From a virus: DNA of 64,000 nt. Within the stretch, counting starts at the first letter, position 1; every line of letters starts with the position of its first letter. The position numbers and the translations under genes are program-made. The stretch is taken from IMG/VR virus record IMGVR_UViG_3300025121_000011, positions 261,474 through 325,473 of that record. One strand, written 5' to 3'. Of this stretch, positions 11,836 to 63,762 are shown piece after piece. The notes below the pieces were generated by a model, which did no database searches, was not told the origin of the DNA, and saw nothing but the letters and a program-made list of their open reading frames with translations.

Positions 11836-11883
11836 GAACGCTTCCATAGACATTCAAATGTATCTGGGCTCATATGAGCCCAA

Positions 11884-11935: not shown

Positions 11936-11992
11936 TAGGCAAATGTTTATAAATCCGCCTCATTAAAGTGAAGCATACATAGGGAGATTATC

Positions 11993-12310: not shown

Positions 12311-12372
12311 AATACTGGTCGGATTTGTTCTGGTTGCAGTTGTTTCTGGTCTTATAATGGAGGGAGTGTGTC

Positions 12373-12588
12373 ATGCCTTCTCAAGAAGAACTCCTCGTGA
12401 CTAACGGAACAGTCCAAGTTCAAGCTCGAATATGCGGACATCGCTACATGGTAATGAGCACGCCAGTCCAGTGGTCAACATACATCTGTCGGATTTGCGG
12501 CCTGATGACAGACCTGATGGTTGTGCCTATGGAAATGCGTATTCAACAGGCAAGACTTGAGAAAAGAAACGCGCACAAAGCTCAGTAA
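12373..12588 (+). CDS. small zinc-ribbon protein
   Basis: CGHRYMV...CRICGL; SD GGAGGGAG. Confidence 0.45.
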   Translation: MPSQEELLVTNGTVQVQARICGHRYMVMSTPVQWSTYICRICGLMTDLMVVPMEMRIQQARLEKRNAHKAQ

Positions 12589-12669
12589 TCTCAAAAGCAT
12601 CTTCTGTGTATTGTGCGTTTAGGATTTTCTGGTAGAAATAACTCGTGCGAAAGCATATGGAGACAACTC

Positions 12670-12834
12670 ATGAACTATGGAAGTAAAGCGAACAAAGAAA
12701 GCATCAAAGCTATTGCTGTTGTTTTGGTAATGTTTTTTGGTGTTGCGGGCATCTTGTATGCCAGTTGGACTTGGGCAGAGTTTACATACGGAGATGGCAC
12801 TTGTGCCTTTTCTGATTGTGTAAAACTCAAGTAA
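12670..12834 (+). CDS. small membrane protein (real start probably ATG 12670 inside the track ORF 12613-12834)
   Basis: hydrophobic stretch AIAVVLVMFFGVAGILYASW; SD GGAGA 6 nt before ATG 12670. Confidence 0.35.
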   Translation: MNYGSKANKESIKAIAVVLVMFFGVAGILYASWTWAEFTYGDGTCAFSDCVKLK

Positions 12835-12945
12835 TCAGTCTTTACTAAGAAAAGGTAGGTACATAATCCTGTGGCTCGAACAGCGCTCCGCCGGATTTAT
12901 GCATGCCCGCTATCTTAGTATTTAAAGATTTTTGGTATAATATCT

Positions 12946-12981
12946 TGGCATAATTTTTGCTTAATGCAATATGTATGCCAC
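12946..12981. promoter_or_regulatory. nested-palindrome element (inverted core)
   Basis: TTGGCATAATTTTTGCTTAATGCAATATGTATGCCACC. Confidence 0.45.
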
Positions 12982-12990
12982 CCTTTTCAA

Positions 12991-13045
12991 GGCGGCAAAA
13001 ACTTAACTATAACTCTAAAAATATATCTGTTAGAGTAAGTATTAT
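12991..13045 (+). promoter_or_regulatory. conserved promoter-like module
   Basis: GGCGGCAAAAACTTAACTATAACTCTAAAAATATATCTGTTAGAGTAAG. Confidence 0.45.
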
Positions 13046-13062
13046 ACAAAGGAGAGATTCAA

Positions 13063-13343
13063 TGATTACTGCATATTTTATTTATTGTTCTACTGGTTGC
13101 TCATGCTGTTCGTATGACAACCATTTCAGCGGGCCTTTTTCTACGCGAGAGATTGCAGAGAAGATGAGGCAGGAGTTTATTGATGGTAGGAAGTTGTCCA
13201 GCCAGTTTTCTGTAGCTGGCAGATACTTAATCGAGGAAGAAGAAGCTGAACAGCTTTTAGATGGAAGGCTGATTATCAATGATCGAGTTTTTCCTGGATG
13301 GGCTGATGACGATGGGTGGAAAGAGGCATTCAAAGAGTGGTAA
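13063..13343 (+). CDS. hypothetical protein (track ORF 12957 trimmed to the SD-supported ATG)
   Basis: AAGGAGAG SD then ATG 13063; the upstream part of the track ORF overlaps the palindrome and promoter module. Confidence 0.45.
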
Positions 13344-13358
13344 TCGGAGGATTGTTCG

Positions 13359-13571
13359 ATGGGTAAGAAGATTAAGCATAGTGGTCAAAACACTGAAGAA
13401 GTAGATCGAGCTACTGCTCAGCGAGGCCAAGATCGCAAAACTCATTTTAAGGAAGGCGGATCAACTGAGGAGTGGACCGGAACCCATCGGGTTCATGATT
13501 CCCGTCCTCGTGGTTCGCGAAACCGAAGAGATTTGAGAGAACAAGCCATTCGTGAGAGCGCAGAGGAGTAG
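13359..13571 (+). CDS. small basic protein
   Basis: 70 aa, Arg/Lys-rich; SD GGAGG upstream. Confidence 0.4.
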   Translation: MGKKIKHSGQNTEEVDRATAQRGQDRKTHFKEGGSTEEWTGTHRVHDSRPRGSRNRRDLREQAIRESAEE

Positions 13572-13573
13572 TC

Positions 13574-13843
13574 ATGAAAGACGCGAGCATTATCAGGCTG
13601 AAGAAAGAACTTGAAATGCTTGCGCGCAGGCGGCATGCATTGGAAGGGCATCGACTTCTTGCAAATGTTTTAGAAAGCATTAGACGATATGAAGATGAAA
13701 CAGGAGATGTAGTGAGATGTTCCCTTGAATTTGTCGCTGAGCAAGATCAAGATTCTGTACGGCATGAATGGATTGGTGGCGGATTTAAGGCTGAGCCCCA
13801 ATGGTATCTGCAAAAGAATCATGTTGTTTTAGAAGAGATATGA
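13574..13843 (+). CDS. hypothetical protein
   Basis: SD AGAGGAG; operon-like packing with neighbours. Confidence 0.45.
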   Translation: MKDASIIRLKKELEMLARRRHALEGHRLLANVLESIRRYEDETGDVVRCSLEFVAEQDQDSVRHEWIGGGFKAEPQWYLQKNHVVLEEI

Positions 13844-13845
13844 GC

Positions 13846-14082
13846 ATGCAAGTACAAGTAGCTCTACCCAAAACAGAGGAAGAGATTCTCGCCTATCTTC
13901 AGGGATTGCAACCTGGAGAGAGAGTGAGAGAAACTGGTAATTCTATGACAAATCAAGAAGGCGATGTCTCCATCAATGGACGTGGAAGCGTCTGTGTACT
14001 TTGGGATCCATTTGAAGATGGGAACCGGATGGGGACATCTATAACTTATGGCACACGAAGAGTGTCTGATCTAGAGGAATAG
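13846..14082 (+). CDS. hypothetical protein (internal ATG of track ORF 13801)
   Basis: ATG 13846 directly after the stop of the previous gene. Confidence 0.4.
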   Translation: MQVQVALPKTEEEILAYLQGLQPGERVRETGNSMTNQEGDVSINGRGSVCVLWDPFEDGNRMGTSITYGTRRVSDLEE

Positions 14083-14119
14083 TATGTGATCGCAATAAAT
14101 TAGAGTTAAAATGTTCGCA

Positions 14120-14178
14120 GGCGGCAAAAACTTAACTGCATCTCTAAAAAAATATTCTACATAGTAATATAGGGCTGT
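14120..14178 (+). promoter_or_regulatory. conserved promoter-like module heading a 940-nt ORF-free transcript
   Basis: GGCGGCAAAAACTTAACTGCATCTCTAAAAAAATATTCTACATAGTAATATAGGG. Confidence 0.5.
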
Positions 14179-15118
14179 GAGAGGAGCTAACTTGAAGGGC
14201 TAAAGAGTTTGTGGTGATGATAGTGTTAGTTGAGTTAACTTCTTTCACAGGACCTGGAGACTTCTCGGAAATATTTAAGATGGTATCATAACCGACTGGC
14301 AGGGAGCCGCACGGCAACAAAGGGCGTTCACCTTAGGGTGGGGGTCTGCCAAAATGATCAAGCCAAGCCTTGCAGGTAGGAGTGACCGGCGAAACTCCCG
14401 TAACCTGAGTAGGAGAATGGCAAGACGTGAGGGACATGCAGTCGACCCTTAGGGATACGATAATCCCCATTTTTTAACATCGTTACAAATAAGTGTTTAT
14501 TGAGTTTCACCAGTATCTCGGATAAAGGCGATGTTAAAGTTAAAACTGGTACTTGTTCTTAGCGGATCCCCGGCTCCGCGTTTGCCCAGAGGAAAGCCGA
14601 GAGACGTATAGTTTCTAACGGGTAGGCAGCATCGCAAGAGTGCCTGATAAAAAGAGGTTATCGGTGGTTGGCTTAGAGGCAGCCATCCTTAATGAGTGAG
14701 ACGATTGCCCCAAGGCGCAAAATGTCGGTAAGTGGTAACAGCTATGCCGATGATGTACCGGGGATAAACAGGGAAAGTGAAAGGCACCCCGTAACTGGTA
14801 AGGCCAATCTTCTCTTCAGCGTAATAGCACGCCGATATAATCTCTTTTAGGTAGGTCCACATGGAATAGCCAAGCGCTATGGGATCGAATATTATCGCAT
14901 TTGGGAATGGTACTCTCCCGCTGGTTGTACCACCTTCTTAAGCGTCAGACATTTACAATGCATAATGCCGGTTAATTTTGCCGGTTAAAGTTGTGAATGT
15001 AGAAAACACTTGTATATATAAGAACACAAGCAGTGACGTAAGTCTGTGATGATTCTATGCAGACACTCTATCATAAATTATAAAAGATGCGCAGCTTTAA
15101 AGCTGCGCATCTTCATTT
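14179..15118 (+). ncRNA. candidate ~940-nt non-coding RNA (promoter module to terminator, no ORF of 60 aa or more on either strand)
   Basis: module 14120-14178 immediately upstream; strong terminator at the end; GC-rich with many stem-forming segments. Confidence 0.45.
15083..15118 (+). terminator. rho-independent terminator ending the 14179-15118 ORF-free transcript
   Basis: AGATGCGCAGCTTTAAAGCTGCGCATCT plus TCATTT. Confidence 0.6.
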
Positions 15119-15123
15119 ATGTG

Positions 15124-15160
15124 TTGGCACAGGAAATGCATTATGCAAAAATCATGCCAG
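15124..15160. promoter_or_regulatory. nested-palindrome element (core variant TGCATTATGCAA)
   Basis: TTGGCACAGGAAATGCATTATGCAAAAATCATGCCAG. Confidence 0.45.
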
Positions 15161-15187
15161 TTAATTATTGTGCAAAAATCAACGTCT

Positions 15188-15248
15188 CCGGCGGCAAAAA
15201 CTTAACTTCTCTTCTAAAAAAATATTCTATAGAGTAACATAGGGCTGT
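15188..15248 (+). promoter_or_regulatory. conserved promoter-like module
   Basis: GGCGGCAAAAACTTAACTTCTCTTCTAAAAAAATATTCTATAGAGTAACATAGGG. Confidence 0.5.
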
Positions 15249-15260
15249 AGGAGAAACCAA

Positions 15261-15506
15261 ATGCCTTCCATCGATTATTCGGTATATATGAGGACCAGGT
15301 TACTGGACAAGGTAACCATGGCACAGCTGATAAAGGTTTGTAAAGATCGACAAGATCTGACCGTTACTCAGGAAGGTGACGATATCTTTCGTGTCTATCT
15401 TGATGTTCCAGGAAATCTGAACGCTGTTAGGATTTTGGAAGCGATTCATCGCGCAGATCGTTGGTGGGATGTAGCTTATGATCTTCGTTTCATGAAAAGC
15501 CTATAA
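15261..15506 (+). CDS. hypothetical protein
   Basis: after module 15188-15248; SD GGAGAAA. Confidence 0.45.
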   Translation: MPSIDYSVYMRTRLLDKVTMAQLIKVCKDRQDLTVTQEGDDIFRVYLDVPGNLNAVRILEAIHRADRWWDVAYDLRFMKSL

Positions 15507-15530
15507 TACAATCTTGTATCAGGAGGAAAG

Positions 15531-15791
15531 ATGAAATTTCTTTCAAGTCTTTTCAACAAGCTTTTTGGTCGTCCTGCCGCTGAAATGTATCTTCATCGAA
15601 TGACGACGGCTATCTTGGATGAAGAGTTACAAGCGATGAATTATCGGGCTTGTCTTGAACATTCCGGTATGGATATTGATACATTCTGTGAGAAAAACAA
15701 GTGTAGTCGTCAATCAATCATCAACGGATGGACGAGAGTATACGGTTCTCCTCCTTCATGGATGAATAAATCTGATTTCATTGGAGAATAA
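15531..15791 (+). CDS. hypothetical protein
   Basis: SD AGGAGGAAAG. Confidence 0.45.
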   Translation: MKFLSSLFNKLFGRPAAEMYLHRMTTAILDEELQAMNYRACLEHSGMDIDTFCEKNKCSRQSIINGWTRVYGSPPSWMNKSDFIGE

Positions 15792-15795
15792 TCAC

Positions 15796-16164
15796 ATGAC
15801 AATTCCAAAGCCGAATTATACCGACATTAGGCGTCAAAGGGAAGCGTTGGAGCTTGCTGTTAAACTCCGAAGGCAAAGAGAGGCGGACGAGCTTAAAGCC
15901 GGTCTTGAAAGACAGGAAGCGGAAAGAAACAATGAGTGCTTTGAAGAGCGTGTGCGTTGCGCCATTCAGGAGGGTATTGGAGACGCAATCACAAGAGGGG
16001 TTCCGACCTTCCATGTTCGAGTTGGAAATGTTGATCCCCTTAGTCTTATAGATCTGGCAAACTGGGGACATCAGATTACCTGCTATGGATTTAGGGTGTG
16101 CTTTTCGGCTCTCGATAAATGTAACCCTCCAAATGGAGTTGTGTTTACAGTTTCTGTTGAATAA
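15796..16164 (+). CDS. hypothetical protein
   Basis: ATG 15796 with SD GGAGAA (track start 15781 is TTG). Confidence 0.45.
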   Translation: MTIPKPNYTDIRRQREALELAVKLRRQREADELKAGLERQEAERNNECFEERVRCAIQEGIGDAITRGVPTFHVRVGNVDPLSLIDLANWGHQITCYGFRVCFSALDKCNPPNGVVFTVSVE

Positions 16165-47881: not shown

Positions 47882-49057
47882 ATGACTACATCACTTGAAG
47901 ATCTTACCACTGCATTACCAACTTTATATGCTTTAGACAGCAGCGGACGTATCAAGGTCTGGTCCGTTAGCATATGCATACATTTGGATCAATCCGCTAC
48001 ATATACAGTAATTCACGGGCTTTTAGATGGAAAGAAACAGAGAAGCCCGCGCAAAATTACCAGCGGGAAAAATATTGGGAAAGCTAATGAAACTTCCCCA
48101 TATGCTCAAGCGTTATCAGAAGCTCAAAGCAAATGGAAAAAACAGATTGACAAGGGATATGTAGAAGATGTGAATAACATTCCTGTCTGCACAGAGGTAG
48201 AATATTTTCTTCCGATGCTTGCTCAAAAATATACTGAGCGTAGTAAGCACATGAAATATCCTGCGTATGTGCAGCCAAAGTTCGATGGTTATCGAGCACT
48301 TAGTCGAAGAATCGGTAAGCAAGTTGTTCTATGGTCTAGAACCGGGAAGCCATTTTTTACCCTGGATATTATCGTTTCTGAATTAGAATCGATAATAAGT
48401 TCAAATGAATGTTTAGATGGGGAAGTTTATAGGCATGACTGGAGAAGTCCATCTAATGAGCCCGACTTTCAAAGAGTTTCTTCGGCAATTAAAAAGAGAA
48501 AGGCAGATACAGATTTGTTAGAATATCATGTTTATGATCGTCCAATTCCAGAGAAGCCTGAAGCCTCATTCTATGAGCGGTTTTATAAACCAGCGTTCAT
48601 TGACGGCACTTTAGTTGGCAGTGACCATGTTAAAATTGTCCCCACTGCATTGGTGGCATCAGAAGAAGAAATGATGCTTCTTTTTAATCAATGGGTCAGT
48701 GAAGACCTTCCGTATGAAGGTGCTATCGTTAGAAATGCTTCTGGTGTATATGGATTTGACACCAGAAGCAATGATCTTCTGAAGGTAAAGGATTTTCAAG
48801 AAGAAGAGTATGAAATCATTGGAGCTAAAGAAGGTACCGGAAAAGACGAGGGTACTGCAATCTTCTTATGTAAGATGAAGGATGGTACAGAATTTGATAG
48901 TCGTCCGGTAGGCTCTTATGAGCAGAGAGCAGAATATTTAACTAACATTAGTAAATATATAGGCAGATATCTTCGGGTAAGATTTAATGGTCTGTCTAAT
49001 CTTGGGGTTCCACGCTTTAATCGTGGCGTAGGTATCAGAGAAGAATGGGATATGTAA
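47882..49057 (+). CDS. ATP-dependent DNA ligase
   Basis: motif I KFDGYRAL (KxDGxR), motif IV EGAIVR, motif V DLLKVK. Confidence 0.75.
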   Translation: MTTSLEDLTTALPTLYALDSSGRIKVWSVSICIHLDQSATYTVIHGLLDGKKQRSPRKITSGKNIGKANETSPYAQALSEAQSKWKKQIDKGYVEDVNNIPVCTEVEYFLPMLAQKYTERSKHMKYPAYVQPKFDGYRALSRRIGKQVVLWSRTGKPFFTLDIIVSELESIISSNECLDGEVYRHDWRSPSNEPDFQRVSSAIKKRKADTDLLEYHVYDRPIPEKPEASFYERFYKPAFIDGTLVGSDHVKIVPTALVASEEEMMLLFNQWVSEDLPYEGAIVRNASGVYGFDTRSNDLLKVKDFQEEEYEIIGAKEGTGKDEGTAIFLCKMKDGTEFDSRPVGSYEQRAEYLTNISKYIGRYLRVRFNGLSNLGVPRFNRGVGIREEWDM

Positions 49058-49888: not shown

Positions 49889-50332
49889 ATGAACTCCTAT
49901 CAGCGAAGAAAAAATCGTCGTTTTTTTAGCAAACTAATTAAAGCCCATCAAAATGGGCGACGAGGTAATTGGGCTTACTCTAGGGGCGGTAAGAAATATG
50001 ATTGTGAAGTATTTTTTGGTGTAGATAGAATAAGTTTATTATCAAAAGATAGGCGAAGTGTAGTTGTAACTTGGACACCCTCTTTCCCCATGCAGATACG
50101 AAGTTTAAAGTTTTTAGAAGAATATTATGGAGAGGATTCTGAGCTGAGATTCTTTCCTGCCTTTAGATTAAAAAATACCGATTATGTTATTATTCCGGGA
50201 TTGCTAAAGGGTTCTATACAGTGGATCTCCCTCCCATTATTAAGAAATGCTTCTTTTGATGAAGTATTTAATGTTCTGACTAGTGCTCAGAAGAAGGAAA
50301 TCATTTGGGTTTTTGATATACTTAGAGGATAG
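49889..50332 (+). CDS. hypothetical basic protein
   Basis: ORF in the operon. Confidence 0.45.
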   Translation: MNSYQRRKNRRFFSKLIKAHQNGRRGNWAYSRGGKKYDCEVFFGVDRISLLSKDRRSVVVTWTPSFPMQIRSLKFLEEYYGEDSELRFFPAFRLKNTDYVIIPGLLKGSIQWISLPLLRNASFDEVFNVLTSAQKKEIIWVFDILRG

Positions 50333-50336
50333 TGTA

Positions 50337-51158
50337 ATGAAAAAAATTGCAATAATTGGAGATATTCATGGTCGTTTAGATATGTTGATGAAAATGCATC
50401 TGAAAATCAGAGATGCATATGGAGATTTACAATTATATTCAACAGGTGATTTAATTGATCGAGGACCTGATGCCAGTGGTGTGATACAATATTGTATTGA
50501 TAATAATGTAAAGGCTGTTAGAGGCAATCATGATGATTGGCTTAGACAATTATGTGTAAATTATACATTTGACTCTCTTTCTATGCACGAGGTAATGGGA
50601 GGTAGATATACCGCCGTCTCTTATGGAGTTCAATCGGCAATTGTAGGGGAAAATAATAGGGAGATTGCCGAAGACCTTTTTAAAAAGGTTCCTACTTCAC
50701 ATAAGAATTGGTTATCTGCACTACCTATTTATTGTAAAATAGTAATGGATTCTGGAGAAGTTTATTGGATAACGCATGCGGGTTTAACAATCCCTATGGC
50801 AAACGATTTAACAGATGGTTTGTCAAAAGTTTCTGACGATATGCTTATGGCTAGCATTAATACTCCTGATCTTATTGAAACCTTTATATGGACTCGGCCA
50901 AATTTTCCAAAAATATTTGATGAGTCTACACCAGTTAAAAAAAGTACGCATGGCAACAATCTATACCATTTTAAAAATGGAGCTATTCAGGTATTTGGTC
51001 ATAGCGTAACTGGATATCCAGTTATAGATAAACATTATATCGCAATTGATACTGGATGTGGAACACTTAAACGGGAGAAGTTAACCGCAGTTGTTTTACC
51101 AGATAATGTATTTATTACAGTGGACGATTTTGAATTGAGTGGAGATCAGAGCAAATGA
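50337..51158 (+). CDS. PPP-family (lambda-phosphatase-like) Ser/Thr or polynucleotide phosphatase
   Basis: GDIHG, GDLIDRG and GNHD motifs at PPP spacing. Confidence 0.65.
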   Translation: MKKIAIIGDIHGRLDMLMKMHLKIRDAYGDLQLYSTGDLIDRGPDASGVIQYCIDNNVKAVRGNHDDWLRQLCVNYTFDSLSMHEVMGGRYTAVSYGVQSAIVGENNREIAEDLFKKVPTSHKNWLSALPIYCKIVMDSGEVYWITHAGLTIPMANDLTDGLSKVSDDMLMASINTPDLIETFIWTRPNFPKIFDESTPVKKSTHGNNLYHFKNGAIQVFGHSVTGYPVIDKHYIAIDTGCGTLKREKLTAVVLPDNVFITVDDFELSGDQSK

Positions 51159-52987: not shown

Positions 52988-53362
52988 TCATTTTAAATGT
53001 AAATTGAAATGGGTTTGTCTGTGACAATTAGCGCACAGTAAGATACATTTATCAAGTTCAGTTTTGATCTTATCAAGTTTGGTGCCTTTATAATTAGATA
53101 TGGAGAAGTCTTTTTGAATTGGATTTCTATGGTGAAATTCTAAGGCGGCATCGCAAGTATTGTATCCGCATTCTTGACAATTACCACCAAGATATTCAAT
53201 AGCTTCATGTTTTAATTTTCCAAAACAATCGATTCTAATGTTGTTCCAACAACTCCTACAATAGGAATAGGAGCGACCGTCACTTTTTATATAGAAATCC
53301 TTAATGAGAAGTACCTGTTCACATTTTGTACAATATCTGGTGTTACCTGGTTCTTTTAACAC
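52988..53362 (-). CDS. HNH homing endonuclease
   Basis: N-terminal Cys-rich zinc finger plus EFHHRNP ... LLCANCHR. Confidence 0.6.
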   Translation of the reverse strand: MLKEPGNTRYCTKCEQVLLIKDFYIKSDGRSYSYCRSCWNNIRIDCFGKLKHEAIEYLGGNCQECGYNTCDAALEFHHRNPIQKDFSISNYKGTKLDKIKTELDKCILLCANCHRQTHFNLHLK

Positions 53363-53518: not shown

Positions 53519-53556
53519 GGACCCTTAGCTCAGTTGGTTAGAGCGTTCGCCTTAAC
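53519..53556 (+). pseudogene. 5' fragment of a tRNA (acceptor, D-arm, 5' anticodon stem and half loop only)
   Basis: GGACCCTTAGCTCAGTTGGTTAGAGCGTTCGCCTTAA then no matching 3' half; an HNH gene follows on the other strand. Confidence 0.4.
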
Positions 53557-53558
53557 TA

Positions 53559-53984
53559 TTAAGAATCTTCTGAAACTATTTTCCTAGAATTGAATGTTCT
53601 TATTCTGTGGCAGTTAGCGCAAACTAATTCGCATTTTGAAATTTCGTTTGACAGTCTTGCTAAAGATACTCCTTTGTTTCGAGCAATACTAATATTAAAT
53701 TCCTTATTTTTAAGGTGGTCAAAATCCATCACATAAGTTGGGTATGTGATACCACAATCAGTACATGGAGCGTCTTTTGCCTTTGCAATTACATCTAGTA
53801 TAGATTGTTCTCTAATACTTTTCCTCTTTCGATAAGCATCTTTGTTAGATTGATAATGAGCTTTACTCATAATCTTATTGCACTCTCGACATCGATTATG
53901 ACGCTTGTTTAAAGATTTGTTTTCAAATGGGAAATCAGTAAGTAATAGGGTTTCGTGACATACATTACATTCTTTGGTAAGCAT
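53559..53984 (-). CDS. HNH homing endonuclease
   Basis: CNVCHE ... CRECN zinc finger plus DFDHLKNK ... LVCANCHR. Confidence 0.6.
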   Translation of the reverse strand: MLTKECNVCHETLLLTDFPFENKSLNKRHNRCRECNKIMSKAHYQSNKDAYRKRKSIREQSILDVIAKAKDAPCTDCGITYPTYVMDFDHLKNKEFNISIARNKGVSLARLSNEISKCELVCANCHRIRTFNSRKIVSEDS

Positions 53985-54037: not shown

Positions 54038-54114
54038 AGGGCCATAACTCAATTGGTTAGAGTGTCGCTCTCATAAAGCGAATGTTCTGAGTTCGAGTCT
54101 CAGTGGCCCTACCA
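54038..54114 (+). tRNA. tRNA with CAT anticodon (initiator/elongator Met or Ile2 lysidine-type), CCA encoded
   Basis: acceptor AGGGCCA/TGGCCCT, D-arm ACTCAATTGGTTAGAGT, anticodon loop CTCATAA, T-arm CTGAG-TTCGAGT-CTCAG, ACCA. Confidence 0.7.
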
Positions 54115-54261: not shown

Positions 54262-54350
54262 AGTAGTGTGATGGTCCTATTCACTACATTCCTGGAACAA
54301 ATAGTTTAATTGGGAGAACATTGACGAAAGGTGTGGGTTCGAGTCCTGCT
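54262..54350 (+). ncRNA. tRNA-like element lacking a canonical anticodon arm (Y-RNA-like / tRNA-mimic candidate), preceded by hairpin GTAGTG...CACTAC
   Basis: D-arm-like GTTTAATTGGGAGAAC and T-arm GTGGG-TTCGAGT-CCTGC only 13 nt apart; similar in architecture to the 54605 element. Confidence 0.35.
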
Positions 54351-54389
54351 TTGATTTTTTATATTAATCTTAAAATCGCGAGGAGTAAT

Positions 54390-54604: not shown

Positions 54605-54690
54605 TAGTGATCATCCTATTCATTACATATTAATGGGCCAAATAGTTCAAGTGGGAGAATATCGTCGCGAGAAGATGTAGGTTCAAATCC
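54605..54690 (+). ncRNA. tRNA-like element lacking a canonical anticodon arm (second copy)
   Basis: D-arm-like GTTCAAGTGGGAGAAT and T-arm GTAGG-TTCAAAT-CCTAC 15 nt apart; similar upstream hairpin. Confidence 0.35.
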
Positions 54691-54814
54691 TACTTTGAGC
54701 CCCCAATTTCATATTCATAGTTTGGGTACATTCAGCATAAATTTTTTTTACCATATAAAAACAAATCGTACCCAGTGATTTAATCCTGGCTTTTGCCATT
54801 TAATGAGGTGTTTA

Positions 54815-55030: not shown

Positions 55031-55196
55031 ATAGGGAATAGGCATCACGGTCGCCTTTAAGTACGCCGTCATAGGTAAGTTTAGTTTTGGGTTGATAACT
55101 ATATTTAAGCAAACCTTAAACAGTTCATAATTTTAAGAAGAGATTTCTTATTATTCACAAATGAATGAGCCAATGATTGTGTCAGTTGGCATCGGT

Positions 55197-55279
55197 GCGG
55201 AGTATACAAGTGGTCAAAGTAGAGGCGCTCATAACGCTTTGCTATAGCTTCATGGGTTCGAATCCCATTTCCGCTCCCA
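55197..55279 (+). tRNA. tRNA-like with CAT anticodon (second CAT tRNA; acceptor stem imperfect)
   Basis: anticodon arm AGGCG-CTCATAA-CGCTT, T-arm ATGGG-TTCGAAT-CCCAT, 3' TTTCCGC t CCA; acceptor pairs 6 of 7. Confidence 0.5.
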
Positions 55280-56560: not shown

Positions 56561-56568
56561 TATTTTTT

Positions 56569-56681
56569 GCGGAATAGTGTAGTAGGGAGCACGCGTATAA
56601 TGTATCTTGATAAAGATGTATACAGCAATCAAACAAATCCATTGGGTGGACGAAGTATAGGTTCGAGTCCTATTTCTGCAA
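56569..56681 (+). ncRNA. tRNA-like element with expanded central region (acceptor TGCGGAA/TTCTGCA)
   Basis: D-arm GTGTAGTAGGGAGCAC, T-arm ATAGG-TTCGAGT-CCTAT, acceptor 7/7 with one G-U; 113 nt. Confidence 0.4.
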
Positions 56682-56975: not shown

Positions 56976-57051
56976 GTAAAAATAATATAAAAATCTTTTG
57001 ATTATTTTTAAAACGTAGCGTATGCTAAATGTAGCAATCAATTAAATTTAT

Positions 57052-57130
57052 GCCTCTGTAGCTCAGGATTGAGAGTGCCTGGCGTTTCGCTGGGAGGGTC
57101 GTTAGGTTAAAGTCTTAACCGGAGGCACCA
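57052..57130 (+). tRNA. tRNA-like (possible TTT anticodon; non-canonical T-loop TTAAAGT), CCA encoded
   Basis: acceptor GCCTCTG/CGGAGGC plus ACCA, D-arm GCTCAGGATTGAGAGT, anticodon region CCTGG-CGTTTCG-CTGGG. Confidence 0.45.
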
Positions 57131-57230
57131 TACAGGTTTGAGGGGAACGCGAAGAGATAGTCCTTAACGTAAGTATTCTATCGTGAGATAGAGTAGCCTA
57201 CTACAATCATTTTATATAGATGTCATTTAT

Positions 57231-57319
57231 ATTTGAATAGCTTAGTGTCAAAGCGTTTGCGGCCTACTTCTTCGGATTCAAAAGCCGTAAAAGTCATAGG
57301 TTAGATTCCTATTTCAAAT
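57231..57319 (+). ncRNA. tRNA-like element with extended anticodon-region helix (acceptor ATTTGAA/TTCAAAT)
   Basis: 7/7 acceptor pairing, D-arm GCTTAGTGTCAAAGC, T-arm ATAGG-TTAGATT-CCTAT, 7-bp central helix with 19-nt loop. Confidence 0.35.
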
Positions 57320-57566
57320 ACTATTTAAACTATAGGTTCACGGAACACACTCTTTCACGGTGGTTACTCACTTTAAATTGAAATATTTTTAGGTCTATAG
57401 TTTAAATTTTTAAGGGATGCAATCAGCAATTAAATTTTTCTTTATGTAAAAACAAATCGCACCCTGATTTTTTTAGGATACAAACAGCAAATAAACATTC
57501 AACTTGTTTTTGAAAAACGTTTAATTGTATCCTGTTTATTATTAGTAGTAGCATTAAGGTGATAAT

Positions 57567-57857
57567 ATGATTCAAGCTATGACTGTATTGACAGCAGAAC
57601 CGCATCCTAATGCGGATAGATTAAAAGTCTATACTCTACGTGCAAGTTATGATGAGCCAATTCTTCAGGTGTGTGCTAATCTAACCAATGTTTATAGTGT
57701 TGGTAATGTTGTAGCTGTTTGTTTAATTGGTCATGCATATGATGGTATGGTTATCAAATCCCGGAAGGTGCGTGGGGTTCTGTCTCAAGGAATGATGATT
57801 GGTACTACAAAGGCTGTTTCAGGTTCTGATGTTACTGATTCATTTGTGATTGTGTAA
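57567..57857 (+). CDS. tRNA-binding domain protein (Myf/CsaA/Trbp111-like OB fold)
   Basis: VLTAEPHPNADRLKVYTL ... VCANLTNV ... GNVVAVCLIG matches the tRNA-binding domain pattern (V.PHPNADKL.VC.VD ... VCGA.N ... G..V.VA). Confidence 0.55.
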   Translation: MIQAMTVLTAEPHPNADRLKVYTLRASYDEPILQVCANLTNVYSVGNVVAVCLIGHAYDGMVIKSRKVRGVLSQGMMIGTTKAVSGSDVTDSFVIV

Positions 57858-58039
57858 AATATATAATTTAAAGTAATCTTCTTATGAATATTGTTAATTT
57901 GTTTTTGTTTGGGTGCAACCAGCAAACTAAATAATTCAGGCTACTATTCTAAATTGCACCCAGCTTTTAATTTTTACTTATAAATATATAATCAGAAGTA
58001 ACTATCCTATGAAATTAAAAACATACCAGGAGGTATGCC

Positions 58040-58648
58040 ATGTTAAGGATGGTTGGGCCCAAAATTCCTATGGATATTTATGTGGCGGCTTCTGGTGGAC
58101 CAGACAGCATGGCTGTCTTGGATTTTCTTATTCGTGGTGGTCGTAAAATTACAGTTTTACATTTTGATCATGGGACTAAACATGGAGAAGATGCTAGAGA
58201 GTTTATTAGGGAGTATTGTCAGTCGAGAGATATTAAACTGATTATTGGAAATGAGATTAGAGAGCGAGACTCTAACGAGTCTATGGAAGAATATTGGCGT
58301 GATATGCGATATCAGTTTCTTGATCAGTATTCAGATAAGCCAATTGTCATGGCACATAATCTTGATGATCAGGTGATGAGTTGGGTATTTACTTCTTTGA
58401 ATGGATTGCCAAAACTTATTCCTTATAACAGAAGGAACGTTATCCGTCCTTTCATTGTAACTTCTAAGCAGAATATGATTGATTGGTGTGAGCGAAATGG
58501 GGTTCCGTATTTAACGGACCCAAGTAATGATGATACAAGATATATGAGAAATTTTATTAGAAAAGAAATTCTTCCTTCAGCTTTAGTTGTTAATCCAGGA
58601 TTATATAAAGTAATCTTAAAGAAGATTTTAAGAAATTTTGAAGGATAA
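58040..58648 (+). CDS. tilS: TilS-like PP-loop ATPase (tRNA(Ile)-lysidine synthetase catalytic domain)
   Basis: PP-loop SGGPDS followed by VLHFDHGTKHGEDAREFIREYC, matching the TilS pattern SGGxDS ... HxxHGxR ... ED..FV..C; 202 aa, so N-terminal domain only. Confidence 0.6.
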   Translation: MLRMVGPKIPMDIYVAASGGPDSMAVLDFLIRGGRKITVLHFDHGTKHGEDAREFIREYCQSRDIKLIIGNEIRERDSNESMEEYWRDMRYQFLDQYSDKPIVMAHNLDDQVMSWVFTSLNGLPKLIPYNRRNVIRPFIVTSKQNMIDWCERNGVPYLTDPSNDDTRYMRNFIRKEILPSALVVNPGLYKVILKKILRNFEG

Positions 58649-58708
58649 ATAATTATATTTTGGATATATGCAGCAATTAAATCACAAACTATCCAGTAGA
58701 GGTGAAAT

Positions 58709-60160
58709 ATGAGTTTTGTAGACGCAATGACTTCTAATGATATGCTTACAGAAAATGGTGCCGTTACTCACAGCACCTCAGGAAAAGCAATTATGGATAT
58801 GTTTTTCCAGATCGGTGGTATGCGTGGCCATAGTGGTGAAGATGTAATTTCTTTATTTACTAAGGCTCTTGGAGAAGATCCTTTAACGGCAATGAAGATC
58901 TTGTTTTATAACCGCGATATTCGTGGTGGACAAGGAGAGCGGCAAACTTTTCGTTATATTATGTCTTATCTTGCTCAGTATCATCCGGAGCTTATTCGAA
59001 AGAATATGCATTTGATTCCGGAATACGGTCGGTGGGATGATATGTTTGTGTTTGTTGGAACCGGATTGGAGAATGATGCTTTTGCTTTAATTCGCACTGC
59101 ATTGCATGAGCAAAACGGTTTAGCCGCAAAGTGGTGTCCTCGTTTGAAGTCTTCTAAAAAGATTTTAGCAGCAAAACTGTGTGCATATCTTGGAATGACT
59201 CCGAAGCAATATCGTCAAACGCTTGCGAGACTTACCAAGGTTGTTGAAACTCCAATGTGCGCTAATCAGTGGGAAGATATTAACTTTAGTCAGGTCCCTT
59301 CGGTAGCAATGAAAAATTATCGCAAGTCATTTGCGAGACATACTCCCAACGAGTGGGAACAGTATCTTGCTGCTTTAGAAAAGGGCGACCCGGCTGTTAA
59401 GATTAATGCAAGCGCTATTTTCCCACATGACATTATCAAACAGTGGGTTGCTGGTTCAGTCGGTTATTATAGGGTTACATCTCCAGATCGTCAAGAGATT
59501 CGCGCAGCCGAAGCACAGTGGAATGCTTTGCCTGATTATATGGGTGAGAATTCTGGAAAGGTATTGGTTATGGCCGATGTTTCGGGTTCTATGTATTCTG
59601 GTTTAAATCCCAGTTTAGCTCCAATTCAGGCTTCCGTTTCTTTGGCGCTGTATTGTGCCGAACGATGTAAGGGGCCTTTTAAGAATTTTTACATGAGTTT
59701 TTCTGGAAATCCAGAATTTGTAAAGGTTCAAGGAAGTAATATTTACGAAAAAGTTATTAATATCAACAATAAAAATGTTGGATATAACACTGATATTAAT
59801 CGTGCTTTTGCGGTATTGTTGAGTCGCGCAAAGCAGCACTCTGTTTCACAGGCCGACATGCAAGAAACTTTATTGATTCTTTCAGATATGCAATTTGATT
59901 GCAGCGAAATTAGTGGAAAGACTAATTTTGAAACGATTCGAGATCAGTACCGTGCATCTGGTTATCAACTTCCTCAGATTGTTTTTTGGAATTTGAATTC
60001 TAAGGGTGGTGTTCCGGTAAAAATAACTGATGATGGAGTAGCTTTAGTGTCCGGGTTTAGCCCAAGTATTCTTACTGCAATCCTGGGTGGAGAAGTATCG
60101 CCCATGGCAGTTTTGAATAGGGCAATTCATAGTGGACGATATGATGCGGTAACTCTTTGA
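58709..60160 (+). CDS. vWA-domain protein, possibly Ro60/TROVE-like (DUF2828-type)
   Basis: C-terminal vWA MIDAS motif VLVMADVSGSM; N-terminus MSFVDAMTSNDMLTENGAVTHSTSGKA ... resembles the phage/bacterial TROVE-related DUF2828 family from memory; terminator 60260-60301. Confidence 0.5.
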   Translation: MSFVDAMTSNDMLTENGAVTHSTSGKAIMDMFFQIGGMRGHSGEDVISLFTKALGEDPLTAMKILFYNRDIRGGQGERQTFRYIMSYLAQYHPELIRKNMHLIPEYGRWDDMFVFVGTGLENDAFALIRTALHEQNGLAAKWCPRLKSSKKILAAKLCAYLGMTPKQYRQTLARLTKVVETPMCANQWEDINFSQVPSVAMKNYRKSFARHTPNEWEQYLAALEKGDPAVKINASAIFPHDIIKQWVAGSVGYYRVTSPDRQEIRAAEAQWNALPDYMGENSGKVLVMADVSGSMYSGLNPSLAPIQASVSLALYCAERCKGPFKNFYMSFSGNPEFVKVQGSNIYEKVININNKNVGYNTDINRAFAVLLSRAKQHSVSQADMQETLLILSDMQFDCSEISGKTNFETIRDQYRASGYQLPQIVFWNLNSKGGVPVKITDDGVALVSGFSPSILTAILGGEVSPMAVLNRAIHSGRYDAVTL

Positions 60161-60259
60161 TAAGGGATTGATGTTTATTGAATAAGTTTTAAGGATACAT
60201 TAACAGCAAAACAAAAGACTACATGATGCAATTAATTAGGTCTTCGGATCGGAATTAAT

Positions 60260-60301
60260 ATGAGTGGCGGCGGGAAGGCATGACGCCACTCATTAAAAAA
60301 A
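60260..60301 (+). terminator. rho-independent terminator
   Basis: ATGAGTGGCG ... CGCCACTCAT (10-bp stem) plus TTAAAAAAA. Confidence 0.55.
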
Positions 60302-60352
60302 TAAATAGATGTCTATGTATCCTGATTTTAATATTTTTATATAGAGGAATTA

Positions 60353-60988
60353 ATGCGAATTTGCACCTCAAATCCCGGCAAGGTATCTGAGTTTGGAGGG
60401 CTTCTCGCACCTCTAGATATTAACCTAGATGTGTCTGGAGATTACGATATTCCAGAAACCGGTATAACTTTTGCAGATAACTCGCGAGAAAAAATTCTGG
60501 GTTATGCCAAGCATTATTCTGGAGAATGGTTATTGGCAGATGATTCTGGATTAGTAATTCCAGCTTTAAATAATTTGCCAGGCCCATTTAGCGCGCGATT
60601 TAGTGATCTTGATCTTGATACGTTAATGATTGTATCAAGTGGAGATGATCGAGAAGTAATTGATTTAAAAAATAACAATCGTGTATTAGAGTTACTTAGT
60701 AATATTCCTCACGATAATCGTGGAGCTTACTTTGTGGCTTGTATTACTGTTTTAAATCCAGATGGAAAAGTTTCTTTCCAAGTAGAACGCAGAGCGTATG
60801 GTTATATTTCCAAAGAACTTCGTGGGAAAAATGGATTTGGATATGATCCTCTTTTCATTTCAGATAATAGCTTTGGCAAAACATGGGCAGAAATTGATAA
60901 GGCTAGAAAGTCTTTAATCAGTCATCGATCTAAAGCTATTTGGGATTTCTTGGCTTGGATCTGCTCTACATCTGAGGTTATTTCATGA
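60353..60988 (+). CDS. Ham1/RdgB-family non-canonical purine NTP pyrophosphatase (ITPase)
   Basis: N-terminal ICTSNPGKVSEF matches the Ham1 ATGNxGKxxE motif. Confidence 0.65.
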   Translation: MRICTSNPGKVSEFGGLLAPLDINLDVSGDYDIPETGITFADNSREKILGYAKHYSGEWLLADDSGLVIPALNNLPGPFSARFSDLDLDTLMIVSSGDDREVIDLKNNNRVLELLSNIPHDNRGAYFVACITVLNPDGKVSFQVERRAYGYISKELRGKNGFGYDPLFISDNSFGKTWAEIDKARKSLISHRSKAIWDFLAWICSTSEVIS

Positions 60989-61028
60989 GTATTCAGTTTA
61001 CAATTAATGTCGTAGTAACTCGGTTTTA

Positions 61029-61613
61029 ATGATGGAATCAATACTTTTGCATTTTGATTCGGTTATAAATTCAATTAAGATTGGAATGCCAACAGGTAGG
61101 CTCCGTGTGCCAGATATAATTTCTGTGCTTGGCGTCGAACCACCTAAGAGAATTGGGCGTGAATTGTTTCTTGCAAGTGGGCGATTTGTTTATTTTTATT
61201 CTAGAACAAAAGTTTATCCACAAATGGTTGCCATGAATGATCTTGATGTGGCCTTTGTTGGGTCGGACGCCTTAGAGGCTGGTCCTTATGCTCAACAGTG
61301 TAATGTTGTTTGGTCAGAGCTACAGCAAGGCGTAAGAGTAGTCCTGGCTGGCTCTACACAAATCTCTAAGGGTAAGCTGCTCCGAGTAGTTACCCCATTT
61401 CCAGAATGGGCTCAGAAGGTCATTGGCGAGCTAGGAATTCCTCATACGATTTACGCAGTAACGGGCGGATCAGAGGGTTTGGTTGCTCATGGTTTGGCTG
61501 ATGCCGTATTTGATATTGTTGAGACTGGAGAAACATTAAGAGATAATGGATTGGAAATTTTAATGGATTTCGGACAACTTCATACATGCTGTATTGTTAA
61601 GAGTAAGCCATGA
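61029..61613 (+). CDS. hisG: ATP phosphoribosyltransferase HisG-like (short form)
   Basis: GRL and DVAFVGSDALEAG resemble HisG hinge/PRPP regions (D.P.LV..G.VDLGI.G.D.L.E). Confidence 0.55.
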   Translation: MMESILLHFDSVINSIKIGMPTGRLRVPDIISVLGVEPPKRIGRELFLASGRFVYFYSRTKVYPQMVAMNDLDVAFVGSDALEAGPYAQQCNVVWSELQQGVRVVLAGSTQISKGKLLRVVTPFPEWAQKVIGELGIPHTIYAVTGGSEGLVAHGLADAVFDIVETGETLRDNGLEILMDFGQLHTCCIVKSKP

Positions 61614-62494
61614 TTGAACTAGATTCTATGACGATGGATACATTTCGCCAACAACCATTAGTAGTAGAAGGTGAAAGCAAAGAAATTAGAGAGCATCCAG
61701 AAGATCCAGAAAAAGTATTAATTTGGTTAAAGCCCACAATCTATAGCTTCACAGAAAATCGTTGTGCTTGGGTCGAAGGATCAAATCTTTTGAGAGCAAG
61801 AGCTATGAAAATCATTGTTCCTTTATTGCAAAGTAAAGGAATAGATCATGCTTATCAAGATATTTCCGATGTAACTGGTTTGATTTCGGCCAGAAAAATC
61901 CATCCGTCAGAAGACCCAAATGTAGAGGTAATCGTAAAGAGATTTAATAGTGGCACATCTTATCATCGTTATTATGGAATGGCGGCTAAGCCAACGAGGG
62001 GATCTCATAAGTTATGGCCCGGGGAAGTTGTTGGAAAGTATGAGCCATATCGTGGACCAAAGATTAGGTTTGACTGGAGGAATCCATTCTGGATTCCAGA
62101 ATTAGTAATGAAGCTTCGTAAGACTAATCCGTTACTTCCAGCGGAAGTTTATAAGTGGCCTGATGAATTGCGTCAAGGCATTATGATGCGTGATGAAGTC
62201 TTGGGAGAGGATTTTGCTTCCGAGCTAATTGATACAAAGCAAGCTAGGAAAACTGCTCTATGGACATATGCAGTTTTACAAAATTATATGGGTGAAAGAA
62301 ATATCGTTATATATGATATGTGTTTGTTTATTACATCAGATGGTAAAACTGTATATGGTGAAATCAATCAAGACTCTGGACGATTTAGACATTTAGATTA
62401 TGGAATGTTGGATAAGGATGTCTGGAGAGCAGGAGGCTCCATTGGAGATGTTTTAGAAAAATGGCAGATGCTAACTGTTATGTTACAAGAATAA
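61610..62494 (+). CDS. SAICAR synthetase (PurC)-like protein
   Basis: LVVEGESKEI ... KPTIYSFTENRCAWVEGSNLLRARAM ... GIDHAY ... VEVIVKRFNSGT tracks E. coli PurC LYRGKAKTVY ... [21 protein letters not shown] ... GIPTQM ... VECVVRNRAAGS. Confidence 0.55.
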   Translation: MIELDSMTMDTFRQQPLVVEGESKEIREHPEDPEKVLIWLKPTIYSFTENRCAWVEGSNLLRARAMKIIVPLLQSKGIDHAYQDISDVTGLISARKIHPSEDPNVEVIVKRFNSGTSYHRYYGMAAKPTRGSHKLWPGEVVGKYEPYRGPKIRFDWRNPFWIPELVMKLRKTNPLLPAEVYKWPDELRQGIMMRDEVLGEDFASELIDTKQARKTALWTYAVLQNYMGERNIVIYDMCLFITSDGKTVYGEINQDSGRFRHLDYGMLDKDVWRAGGSIGDVLEKWQMLTVMLQE

Positions 62495-62514
62495 TGACAG
62501 AAGGTTTGTGAAAT

Positions 62515-63762
62515 ATGATTATACCAAGTATTGATATTCAGGGCGGCAAAGTAGTTCAGCTTATTGAGGGCAGGGAGTTAGCATTAACTGTAGATGTTCC
62601 ATACGCTTTAGCTGAAAAGTTTTCTCGCGTTGGAGAGTTTGCTGTTATAGATTTAGACGCTGCTATGGGTTTGGGTAATAATCGAGAGATTGTAGAATCT
62701 TTAGTAAGAAAATATCCAGTTAGAGTTGGTGGTGGTATTAGGAATATATCAGATGCATTATATTGGTTAAATGCCGGGGCGTCAAAGATTATTATTGGAA
62801 CCGCCGCTGTTCCAAATTTTATTTCACAACTTCCTCGTGATCGAATTATTGTAGCTTTAGATTCTTATAATGACGATGTTGTTATAAATGGTTGGACTAC
62901 AAGAACTGGACGTAATGTTGCCCAAGCTATGCAAGATGTTTTACCATATACATCTGGATTCTTAATTACTTTTGTAGAGAAAGAAGGAAGGTTAGATGGC
63001 ACAAACTTAGACAGGACTAAGTTTTTAGTTGATGCCGCAAATGGTGCGCGCATCACTTTTGCAGGAGGAATTACAACTGCTAATGATATAGCATATCTAG
63101 ATTCTATTGGTGCCGATTCGCAGGTCGGAATGGCTCTTTACACTGGAAAGCTTTTATTATCGGAAGGGTTCGCTTCTGTTTTGAAAAGTGATCGAAGCGA
63201 TGGACTTTGGCCAACAGTTGTTCAAGATGAATCTGGAGTATTAGGTTTAGTATATTCAAATCAAGAAAGTCTTCATACATCAATTGAATCTGGTGAAGGT
63301 GTATATTGGTCAAGAAGAACCGGTTTATGGAAGAAGGGAAACTTTTCTGGCAATACACAATCAATAGTAAATATTAAAGTAGATTGTGATCGAGATGCTT
63401 TGCTTTTTACAGTAAAGCAGCATGGTGAGGGATTCTGTCATACCGGTTCTTATCAATGTTTTAATTCAATGGATGCACTATTTGAACTTGAACAAACATT
63501 AGAGCGCAAGAAACATTCTAATGATTTAGAATCTTATACATATAACTTATTTGAGCAATCAAATATCTTAAGAAATAAGATCATGGAAGAGGCGGCTGAA
63601 TTATGTGACGCCCATAGTAATAGTGAGGTTATTCATGAGGCGGCAGATCTGATATATTTTATGATGACTTATCTTTCTTTACATGATGTAACTTTAGCTG
63701 ATATTAAGAAAGAAATTAAACGTCGGTCATTAGTGATTGCAAGAAGGAAAAGTAAAGAGTGA
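62515..63762 (+). CDS. hisAIE: HisA-HisI-HisE fusion protein (ProFAR isomerase, PR-AMP cyclohydrolase, PR-ATP pyrophosphatase)
   Basis: N-terminal MIIPSIDIQGGKVVQL (HisA MIIPALDLIDGTVVRL); middle DCDRDALLFTVKQHGEGFCHTGSYQCF (HisI); C-terminal SYTYNLF ... EEAAEL ... EAADLIYF (HisE). Confidence 0.7.
   Translation: MIIPSIDIQGGKVVQLIEGRELALTVDVPYALAEKFSRVGEFAVIDLDAAMGLGNNREIVESLVRKYPVRVGGGIRNISDALYWLNAGASKIIIGTAAVPNFISQLPRDRIIVALDSYNDDVVINGWTTRTGRNVAQAMQDVLPYTSGFLITFVEKEGRLDGTNLDRTKFLVDAANGARITFAGGITTANDIAYLDSIGADSQVGMALYTGKLLLSEGFASVLKSDRSDGLWPTVVQDESGVLGLVYSNQESLHTSIESGEGVYWSRRTGLWKKGNFSGNTQSIVNIKVDCDRDALLFTVKQHGEGFCHTGSYQCFNSMDALFELEQTLERKKHSNDLESYTYNLFEQSNILRNKIMEEAAELCDAHSNSEVIHEAADLIYFMMTYLSLHDVTLADIKKEIKRRSLVIARRKSKE

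Follow-up and report, generated by a model that had tools for sequence, protein, structure and literature searches.

A short TilS-type gene of large phages and its physical linkage to CAU-anticodon tRNAs

The locus and the identity of the short TilS gene

The stretch of DNA analyzed here, hereafter the window, comprises 64,000 nucleotides (nt) of a virus (positions 261,474 to 325,473 of the IMG/VR record IMGVR_UViG_3300025121_000011) and carries a short open reading frame (ORF), referred to as mini-TilS, whose 202-amino-acid (aa) product resembles the catalytic domain of TilS, the transfer RNA (tRNA)(Ile)-lysidine synthetase. Lysidine at position 34 (k2C34) shifts a tRNA from methionyl-tRNA synthetase (MetRS) and the AUG codon to isoleucyl-tRNA synthetase (IleRS) and the AUA codon, and TilS is thought to need appended domains in order to separate tRNA-Ile2 from tRNA-Met, both of which bear the anticodon CAU (CAT in the DNA). 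An earlier note had drawn attention to this gene, to CAT tRNAs in its vicinity and to a possible tRNA-binding partner encoded upstream. The elements on which the argument turns are the following, in window positions:

58040-58648, + strand: mini-TilS ORF, 202 aa, ATG start; N-terminal part of TilS, made up of the PP-loop ATP-pyrophosphatase and the helical subdomain specific to TilS
58028-58033, + strand: Shine-Dalgarno sequence AGGAGG, separated by 6 nt from the mini-TilS start codon (58040)
54038-54114, + strand: tRNA(CAU) of elongator type with Ile2 signature, the proposed substrate (ARAGORN; Rfam tRNA 69.2 bits)
55196-55279, + strand: tRNA(CAU), initiator-like (ARAGORN; Rfam tRNA 41.1 bits, lax filters, above threshold)

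The placement of AGGAGG leads us to prefer the 202-aa start over the 199-aa call of JGI. Pfam PF01171 matches the product with an expectation value (E) of 7.5e-34, and the NCBIfam model TIGR02432 (lysidine_TilS_N) passes its curated cutoff of 93.6 at 120 bits, whereas the models for QueC, TtcA, ThiI and PAPS reductase reach E values of 4e-4 to 0.04 and all remain below their cutoffs (QueC 20.4 bits against 22, TIGR00364 14.6 against 150, TtcA 13.3 against 272, TtuA 17.2 against 450, ThiI 15.8 against 264); the sub-threshold matches, that of TtuA included, are limited to the PP-loop region. The only significant sequence matches in the Protein Data Bank (PDB) are TilS enzymes, namely those of Aquifex aeolicus (1wy5, 5.6e-16), Geobacillus kaustophilus (3a2k) and Escherichia coli (1ni5). 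An AlphaFold2 model built from an alignment of 36 family members, with a predicted local distance difference test score (pLDDT) of 95.4 and a predicted template modeling score (pTM) of 0.90, likewise retrieves TilS as the best matches in Foldseek (2e21, 2e89, 1wy5 and 1ni5, with a query TM-score, TMq, of 0.79-0.82), TtuA coming next at 0.70-0.77.

At the level of single residues, the PP-loop reads S18-G-G-P-D22-S23, and mini-TilS has in common with the A. aeolicus, G. kaustophilus and E. coli enzymes S18GGxD22S23, H44, R87, R90-Y91, H106, D110 and G122 and, further along, R136-P137, D160-x-x-N163, R170-N-x-x-R174 and P179. Column comparison with the same three enzymes recovers the TilS subdomain motifs (R..RY, HxLDD, G...P...RP, D-x-S-N and R-N-x-I/L-R), of which the D..N / R..R motif is missing from TtcA in the alignment. 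The protein has just two isolated Cys and no CxxC, so that one would not expect it to carry out Fe-S-dependent thiolation as TtcA and TtuA do. The earlier note had read the gene as a TilS-type catalytic domain, as opposed to QueC or TtcA, and had proposed a comparison of profiles among PP-loop families; TilS won that comparison, and it is thereby confirmed that 58040-58648 encodes a TilS-type catalytic domain. A megablast search with positions 57000-61000 against phage genomes matched nothing.

The same note held that the C-terminal tRNA-binding domains are absent, and this too is borne out. The 202-aa product aligns just to residues ~15-225 of the solved TilS structures and, set against the 432-aa E. 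coli enzyme, ends where the linker helix starts, without C-terminal domain (CTD) 1 or CTD2; the full-length TilS equivalog NF007942 reaches 59 bits where its cutoff is 606. The Pfam domain of the TilS CTD was not found in the ORFs neighboring mini-TilS, and a phmmer search for a detached C-domain, with the E. coli CTD as query against the six-frame translation of the window, returned noise only (E>=5) within the sensitivity that a single query affords.

A phage family linked to CAU-anticodon tRNAs

The earlier note held that a split TilS of this kind would be unusual. As an architecture, the short protein is not rare among phages: at least 481 IMG/VR viral contigs encode a mini-TilS relative, and the protein has already been published as TilS in the phages MIJ3 and PA5oct. 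A word-indexed protein search gave 146 clusters, nearly all of 196-230 aa and on contigs of up to 403 kilobases (kb), with identities to mini-TilS of 43-63% for the best 120 of the 146. When 1.84 billion representatives were scanned exhaustively with HMMER, about 200 clusters were obtained (50% identity, E<=1e-30), the best 150 being almost all of ~200 aa and canonical TilS scoring much more weakly. Contigs of the family extend to 524 kb, and the ORF measures 196-229 aa in the examined loci (n=90; loci are designated L with a number), except for the near-identical L061 and L066, where it has 263 aa. A 203-aa version, 44% identical over 90% of the protein, occurs in PA5oct, MIJ3 and related jumbo phages of Pseudomonas, where it is annotated 'tRNA(Ile)-lysidine synthetase', and the 630-640 kb metagenomic phages LR756502 and LR745206 carry the gene as well. 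A 450-aa candidate for a second, long TilS beside the short one in L034 and L036 was discarded, its match (E=3e-13) being likely spurious and its sequence looking of topoisomerase/gyrase-A type.

With respect to the literature, passages of the 2019 MIJ3 paper describe a host-like 'putative TilS' of unknown role in MIJ3 and PA5oct, on whose contribution to maintaining host viability the authors speculated (PMC6892783), and a passage of the PA5oct paper reports that the TilS gene is transcribed throughout infection; the passages of both papers found by term search mention neither missing CTDs nor a link to tRNAs. The mini-TilS of the window is a new member of a widespread, already annotated and uncharacterized phage family. 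What the present analysis adds is the physical association of the gene with a tRNA that bears the anticodon CAU and is of the Ile2 type, a linkage that gives the short TilS family a testable function.

This linkage was established by calling tRNAs with ARAGORN in all fetched loci, 73 of which are distinct after removal of duplicates. Within 10 kb on either side of mini-TilS, CAT is by far the commonest anticodon (45 of 233 tRNAs), and it is concentrated next to the gene: 18 of the 33 tRNAs at a distance of up to 150 nt carry it, as against 27 of the 200 lying further out (Fisher p=8e-7, to be taken as indicative only, the loci being phylogenetically related). In 25 of the 48 loci having any tRNA the nearest one is CAT, and the near-gene tRNAs are all on the same strand as mini-TilS, typically 16-60 nt away.

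To which type such tRNAs belong can be judged from the survey of Silva et al., who classified ~1070 bacterial CAT tRNAs and never found G3, A3, C70 or U70 in tRNA-Met or tRNA-fMet, for which reason these nucleotides mark tRNA-Ile(CAU); C4:G69 and C5:G68 are often found in the latter, and A11:U24 together with G12:C23 marks initiators (PMC1635315). Thirteen of the 18 adjoining CAT tRNAs have G3:C70 or A3:U70, and none has the initiator marks. All 16 adjoining tRNAs that were compared are closer to E. coli ileX (sequence taken from the annotated genome) than to metT (verified at 100% identity), one of them by only 0.74 to 0.73, and ileX is the best E. coli match of the tRNA adjoining mini-TilS in L020. 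In L009, which has three CAT tRNAs and a tRNA-Ile(GAU), the CAT tRNA that adjoins mini-TilS is the one closest to the tRNA-Ile(GAU) of the same locus (56 identical positions versus 47 and 50). In PA5oct (L091, MK797984.1), the two CAT tRNAs of elongator type at 9559-9632 and 10040-10113 have identical D, anticodon and T arms and differ in the acceptor stem only, which reads CCCTCGG (C3:G70) in one and GGGACTT (G3:C70) in the other, each being followed by a tRNA-Leu(UAA). The two form a natural Met/Ile2-like pair with which discrimination by a TilS consisting of the N-terminal domain (NTD) only can be probed.

As had been claimed, the window itself has two CAT tRNAs, both of them called by ARAGORN and above the Rfam threshold, and their identity was judged by structural rules and group comparison. 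The tRNA at 54038-54114 combines A1:U72, G2:C71, G3:C70, G4:C69, C5:G68, C11:G24 and A73 with an encoded CCA and the loop CUCAUAA; G4:C69 takes the place of C4:G69, the initiator marks are absent, and its mean identity to the set of TilS-adjoining CAT tRNAs is 67%, the range within that set being 59-75%. In a BLAST search of phage and E. coli genomes the best matches of the window CAT tRNA are to tRNA-Lys, tRNA-Met and tRNA-Trp (73-86% identity) and are uninformative as to its identity. The tRNA at 55196-55279 has a U1xU72 mismatch, a G2-C3-G4-G5 acceptor, A11:U24, a variable arm of ~14 nt and C73, and it groups with initiator-like phage tRNAs from L003 (U1xU72), L009 (U1:A72) and PA5oct (C1xA72). 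Initiator-like CAT tRNAs with the GCGG acceptor were noted, besides 55196-55279, at L003 2537-2614, L009 9512-9589 and L001 730-806; the ~14-nt variable arm and C73 of the window copy are odd for any Met or fMet tRNA. The expectation that an Ile2 candidate would be found among the CAT tRNAs therefore stands for 54038-54114, whose G3:C70, C5:G68 and A73 support an assignment to the Ile2 type, and fails for the initiator-like 55196-55279, which is probably outside the Ile2 system. Neither of the two outcomes that the earlier note had named as refuting its reading came about.

A proposed route to AUA decoding and its alternatives

Across 41 confident ORFs taken from the window, which total 9,407 codons, AUA occurs 12.1 times per 1000 codons and makes up 16% of the Ile codons. 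For comparison, the literature gives an AUA usage of 0.6 for B. cenocepacia, 4.9 for E. coli and 16.8 for B. fragilis (PMC12514573). The guanine-plus-cytosine (GC) content of the window is 39% (45-47% in positions 1-16000 versus 35-37% in 24001-64000). The other phage tRNAs in it are Leu(UAA) and Lys(UUU), which correspond to codons ending in A, namely UUA and AAA. We consider it rather probable that the gene encodes a catalytic-domain-only tRNA(Ile)-lysidine synthetase, a member of a large family in jumbo phages that is carried along with its own substrate, a phage tRNA(CAU), represented here by 54038-54114. Family membership, fold, missing CTDs, tRNA linkage, Ile2-type tRNA features and AUA usage are the observations on which this proposal is based; the lysidine chemistry, the substrate and a discrimination of Ile2 from Met without CTDs are what we infer.

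According to the proposed mechanism, the PP-loop of mini-TilS would bind ATP and adenylate C2 of C34 in the phage tRNA(CAU), and attack by lysine on the adenylated C34 would then yield k2C34. This would move the phage tRNA from MetRS and AUG to IleRS and AUA, whereby the AT-rich phage would gain a decoding of AUA that is independent of the host TilS. Type I TilS orthologues read species-specific acceptor-stem pairs without cross-reaction, to the point that BcTilS rejects E. coli tRNA-Ile2 (PMC12514573, PMC11947777), so that a mobile phage tRNA-Ile2 could not rely on the enzyme of its host, a difficulty that a minimal cognate enzyme would solve. A bolder formulation, which we advance tentatively and would place slightly short of an even balance, is that NTD-only TilS constitutes a third architectural class, which would form, together with a tRNA-Ile2 of its own with which it travels and co-evolves, a portable cassette of two genes for AUA decoding in jumbo phages and would select its substrate without a domain that reads the acceptor stem or the tRNA body. 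To our knowledge, reviews and recent enzymology recognize only type I and type II TilS. It is also possible that the Met at position 113 of the window copy (E113M) or the lineage-specific OB-fold neighbor, both considered below, marks a mechanistic departure, e.g. another nucleophile or a trans-acting tRNA clamp.

A number of points weigh against a catalytic-domain-only enzyme working on its own phage tRNA. We know of no NTD-only TilS that has been assayed so far. Deletion of CTD2 alone strongly cut the activity of type I TilS (PMC11947777). The members of the PA5oct pair are not separable by an enzyme that reads the anticodon arm alone, and five of the 18 adjoining CAT tRNAs have pairs that the 3:70 rule cannot classify (C3:G70 in two, U3:A70 in three). 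In the window, the proposed substrate lies 3.9 kb upstream of mini-TilS, on the same strand, and does not adjoin it; the AUA usage figures describe the phage side only; and position 113, within the H-x-L-D-D-x-x-E motif, is Met in the window copy and Glu in 262 of 265 family members. A replacement at so nearly invariant a site makes the activity of the window copy less certain than that of the family.

Two neighboring genes enter into the alternatives to be weighed:

57567-57857, + strand: stand-alone tRNA_bind OB-fold protein, 96 aa (Trbp111/YtpR/PheT-B2 type), PF01588, E=1.8e-10
58709-60160, + strand: DUF2828 + DUF7788 protein (phrog_850 'RNA-binding protein'), downstream neighbor of mini-TilS in the sub-lineage of the window phage

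The variant at position 113 raises the question of whether the window mini-TilS is crippled or repurposed, in that E113M might abolish lysidine formation, leaving a decaying gene or a tRNA-binding pseudoenzyme, or else alter the nucleophile or the chemistry. This we regard as unlikely, although the residue is conspicuous enough: Glu is found there not only in nearly the whole family but also in all three solved TilS (A. aeolicus E140, E. coli E123, G. kaustophilus E134), the Met codon ATG is two substitutions away from GAR, and the sole other Met113 is in the identical JGI copy P0001. E. coli TtcA, which uses sulfur in place of lysine, has Gln at the aligned position; a carboxylate there is hence not required for cytidine adenylation across the superfamily, and the Glu may serve the TilS-specific lysine step, a hint that the residue concerns the second step of the reaction. 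A literature search on the role of Glu140 found nothing. Set against this, all 17 further near-invariant residues that were examined between S18 and R174 are preserved, the ORF is of full length with a good ribosome-binding site and conserved synteny, and position 113 also varies elsewhere in the family, with one Gly and one Asp; the window copy may be fully active, impaired or altered. That mini-TilS has been mis-assigned to TilS and is another PP-loop enzyme (QueC, TtcA, TtuA/Ncs6, ThiI or PAPS reductase) is extremely improbable: the weak matches of its PP-loop region to QueC, PAPS_reduct, ThiI and TtuA and the second rank of TtuA in the fold search are outweighed by profile scores that already effectively refute it, only TilS_N exceeding its own curated cutoff, as well as by the lack of Cys clusters for Fe-S or Zn and by the retained TilS-specific D-x-S-N...R-N-x-I-R subdomain.

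The remaining two alternatives concern what mini-TilS works with and on. The upstream ORF is indeed the tRNA-binding OB-fold protein that had been announced, its best PDB matches being PheRS-beta B2 domains, the putative tRNA-binding protein 3bu2 and the C-terminal domain of MetRS, and it had been suggested that this protein supplies the missing tRNA binding in trans, i.e. that the two proteins make up one split TilS in which the OB protein provides the binding to the tRNA body or acceptor for which the missing CTDs would be responsible. OB domains of the Trbp111 type boost tRNA binding for synthetases, an NTD-only enzyme is plausibly in need of help, and the OB gene is the protein gene immediately before mini-TilS in the window (183-nt gap) and lies 1.7-2.7 kb upstream of it in L003, L006 and L094, the last of which keeps the order OB ... 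TilS-DUF2828. The suggestion nevertheless fares badly across the family, and we judge a split TilS to be quite unlikely: the OB gene is found within 10 kb of mini-TilS in just three of the 73 distinct loci, all of them from the closest relatives of the window phage and with several unrelated genes in between, and synteny within one lineage is not evidence of coupling. No OB homologue was found by tblastn in any of the 31 phage records with a TilS match, including PA5oct-like phages and LR756502/LR745206; the OB family is very small, its 16 clusters lying without exception on contigs of 330-420 kb, and in L095 its gene stands among aminoacyl-tRNA synthetase-like genes without a TilS/PF01171 protein within 7 kb, a 209-aa unannotated ORF nearby having proved on examination not to be TilS. 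As a whole, the short TilS family clearly has no need of the OB protein. That the two genes adjoin in the window looks like lineage-specific synteny in a translation-gene island, and for the OB protein a role as accessory to mini-TilS in this lineage is possible, though not supported. Nor do we give much credence to a mini-TilS acting on host or other RNAs, whether by modifying host tRNAs, by shielding anticodon loops from host anticodon nucleases or by taking part in RNA repair or quality control with a Ro/TROVE-like DUF2828 protein and tRNA-like RNAs. Such an action, which we deem improbable, would fit the position of the DUF2828/DUF7788 gene after mini-TilS in about eight loci, the RNA ligase, PNKP-ligase and Metallophos genes near it in L007 and L009, the abundance of odd tRNA-like elements in the window and the host-viability role raised in the MIJ3 paper; yet the strongest and most widespread association of mini-TilS is with CAT tRNA and not with DUF2828 or repair genes, and no other substrate of TilS is known (PMC12514573).

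Several features of the surroundings are worth recording in their own right. Two tRNA-like modules (54295-54357 and 54636-54701; Rfam tRNA 37 and 32 bits) have acceptor, D and T arms and a stub of 4-7 nt replacing the anticodon arm, and each is preceded by a hairpin (~54270, ~54609) with the conserved loop GAT(G/C)(G/A)TCCTATTCA, a motif found in this phage only. The DUF2828/DUF7788 protein, encoded 4 kb downstream, is suspected to be Ro/TROVE-like, and the modules may be its Y-RNA/YrlA-like partners; the element 54262-54362, folded as a Y-RNA candidate, is no stabler than shuffled sequence (z=+1.2). Two further tRNA-like genes contain insertions in the anticodon loop (56568-56681, 53 nt, Rfam 41 bits; 57231-57320, 26 nt, 49 bits), and a third (57054-57131) has, by eye, a 7-base-pair hairpin with a 3-nt loop in the place of the anticodon arm; ARAGORN calls none of the three, which could be intron-bearing tRNAs, decoys or pseudogenes. 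A 5' tRNA half at 53520-53556 ends inside the anticodon loop and abuts a 141-aa ORF without clear Pfam match (53559-53984, - strand), with a weak HNH-endonuclease ORF (52988-53362, - strand) just upstream; neither a 3' half nor a group I intron was detected for it, and the tRNA gene looks as if disrupted by a mobile element. The repair genes of the relatives lie up to 8 kb from mini-TilS (L007 1-688 and 1708-4795; L009 1459-2484); their products are PNKP-ligase, phosphoesterases of the Metallophos type and an RNA ligase of the Rnl type that bears a PHA02142 OB domain. In the window, a Metallophos gene lies at 50283-51158, and 47882-49057 encodes an ATP-dependent ligase. Downstream, a Ham1/RdgB NTP pyrophosphatase gene (60353-60988) is followed at 61029-63762 by three consecutive genes whose products resemble enzymes of the histidine or purine pathways: the ATP phosphoribosyltransferase HisG, weakly a SAICAR synthetase, and a protein in which HisA/F-like, PRA-CH (HisI) and PRA-PH (HisE) domains are fused, the His/purine-like genes being possibly an unusual phage cargo for 5-aminoimidazole-4-carboxamide ribonucleotide and its triphosphate (AICAR/ZTP) or for nucleotide modification.

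If the short phage protein is indeed a lysidine synthetase reduced to its catalytic domain and accompanied by its own tRNA, a natural family of this kind, together with its tRNAs, would help to define the minimal needs of lysidine formation and of substrate discrimination. Such a family would further account for the reading of AUA by AT-rich jumbo phages where AUA, tRNA-Ile2 and TilS activity are scarce in the host, as exemplified by PA5oct, with 33% GC in a Pseudomonas host of 66% GC. For codon reassignment, the compact pair of enzyme and tRNA could prove a useful component. Since PA5oct and MIJ3 can be cultured, the hypothesis is directly testable.

Comparison with characterized enzymes and known phages

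Among PP-loop enzymes, the tRNA 2-thiolases TtcA and TtuA (PF01171) have the PP-loop fold and the H-x-x-D-D helix motif in common with mini-TilS; unlike it, they require Cys-ligated Fe-S and Zn sites and lack the TilS-specific subdomain motif. The OB protein, for its part, matches PF01588 (Trbp111/CsaA/YtpR/PheT-B2/MetRS-C) end to end and is a minimal stand-alone form that falls below the curated YtpR and TapR cutoffs; domains of the Trbp111/CsaA/YtpR type have no known connection with TilS in cells, nor do phages show a conserved one.

The closest counterpart in both sequence and structure is type II TilS, as represented by the 317-aa enzyme of A. aeolicus (1wy5, 2e21, 2e89; E=5.6e-16, TMq 0.82), which shares with mini-TilS the PP-loop, HxLDD, the G...P loop, the RP motif and the D-x-S-N / R-N-x-I-R subdomain; it differs in having E140 where mini-TilS has Met and in still possessing the linker helix and CTD1, the latter in contact with the anticodon stem and the tRNA body, whereas mini-TilS does not extend past the beginning of the linker. 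Type I TilS (E. coli MesJ/TilS, 1ni5; G. kaustophilus, 3a2k) has a homologous N-domain (24% identity over ~185 aa, TMq 0.82) followed by CTD1 and the acceptor-stem reader CTD2, neither of which is present in mini-TilS. The acceptor-stem pairs read by CTD2 of type I TilS are C4:G69/C5:G68 in E. coli. Burkholderia TilS discriminates by the 3:70 pair (PMC11947777).

Among phages, MIJ3 gp263 and PA5oct EST35_0433 (203 aa) are of the same family and length as the window mini-TilS, and PA5oct, like the window phage, encodes CAT tRNAs, one of them with G3:C70; the two proteins differ from it in carrying Glu at position 113, and their phages lack both the OB tRNA_bind gene and an adjoining DUF2828 gene. 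Common among large phages as it is, the short TilS is unusual when set beside the characterized enzymes, and it is an undescribed architectural variant of TilS.

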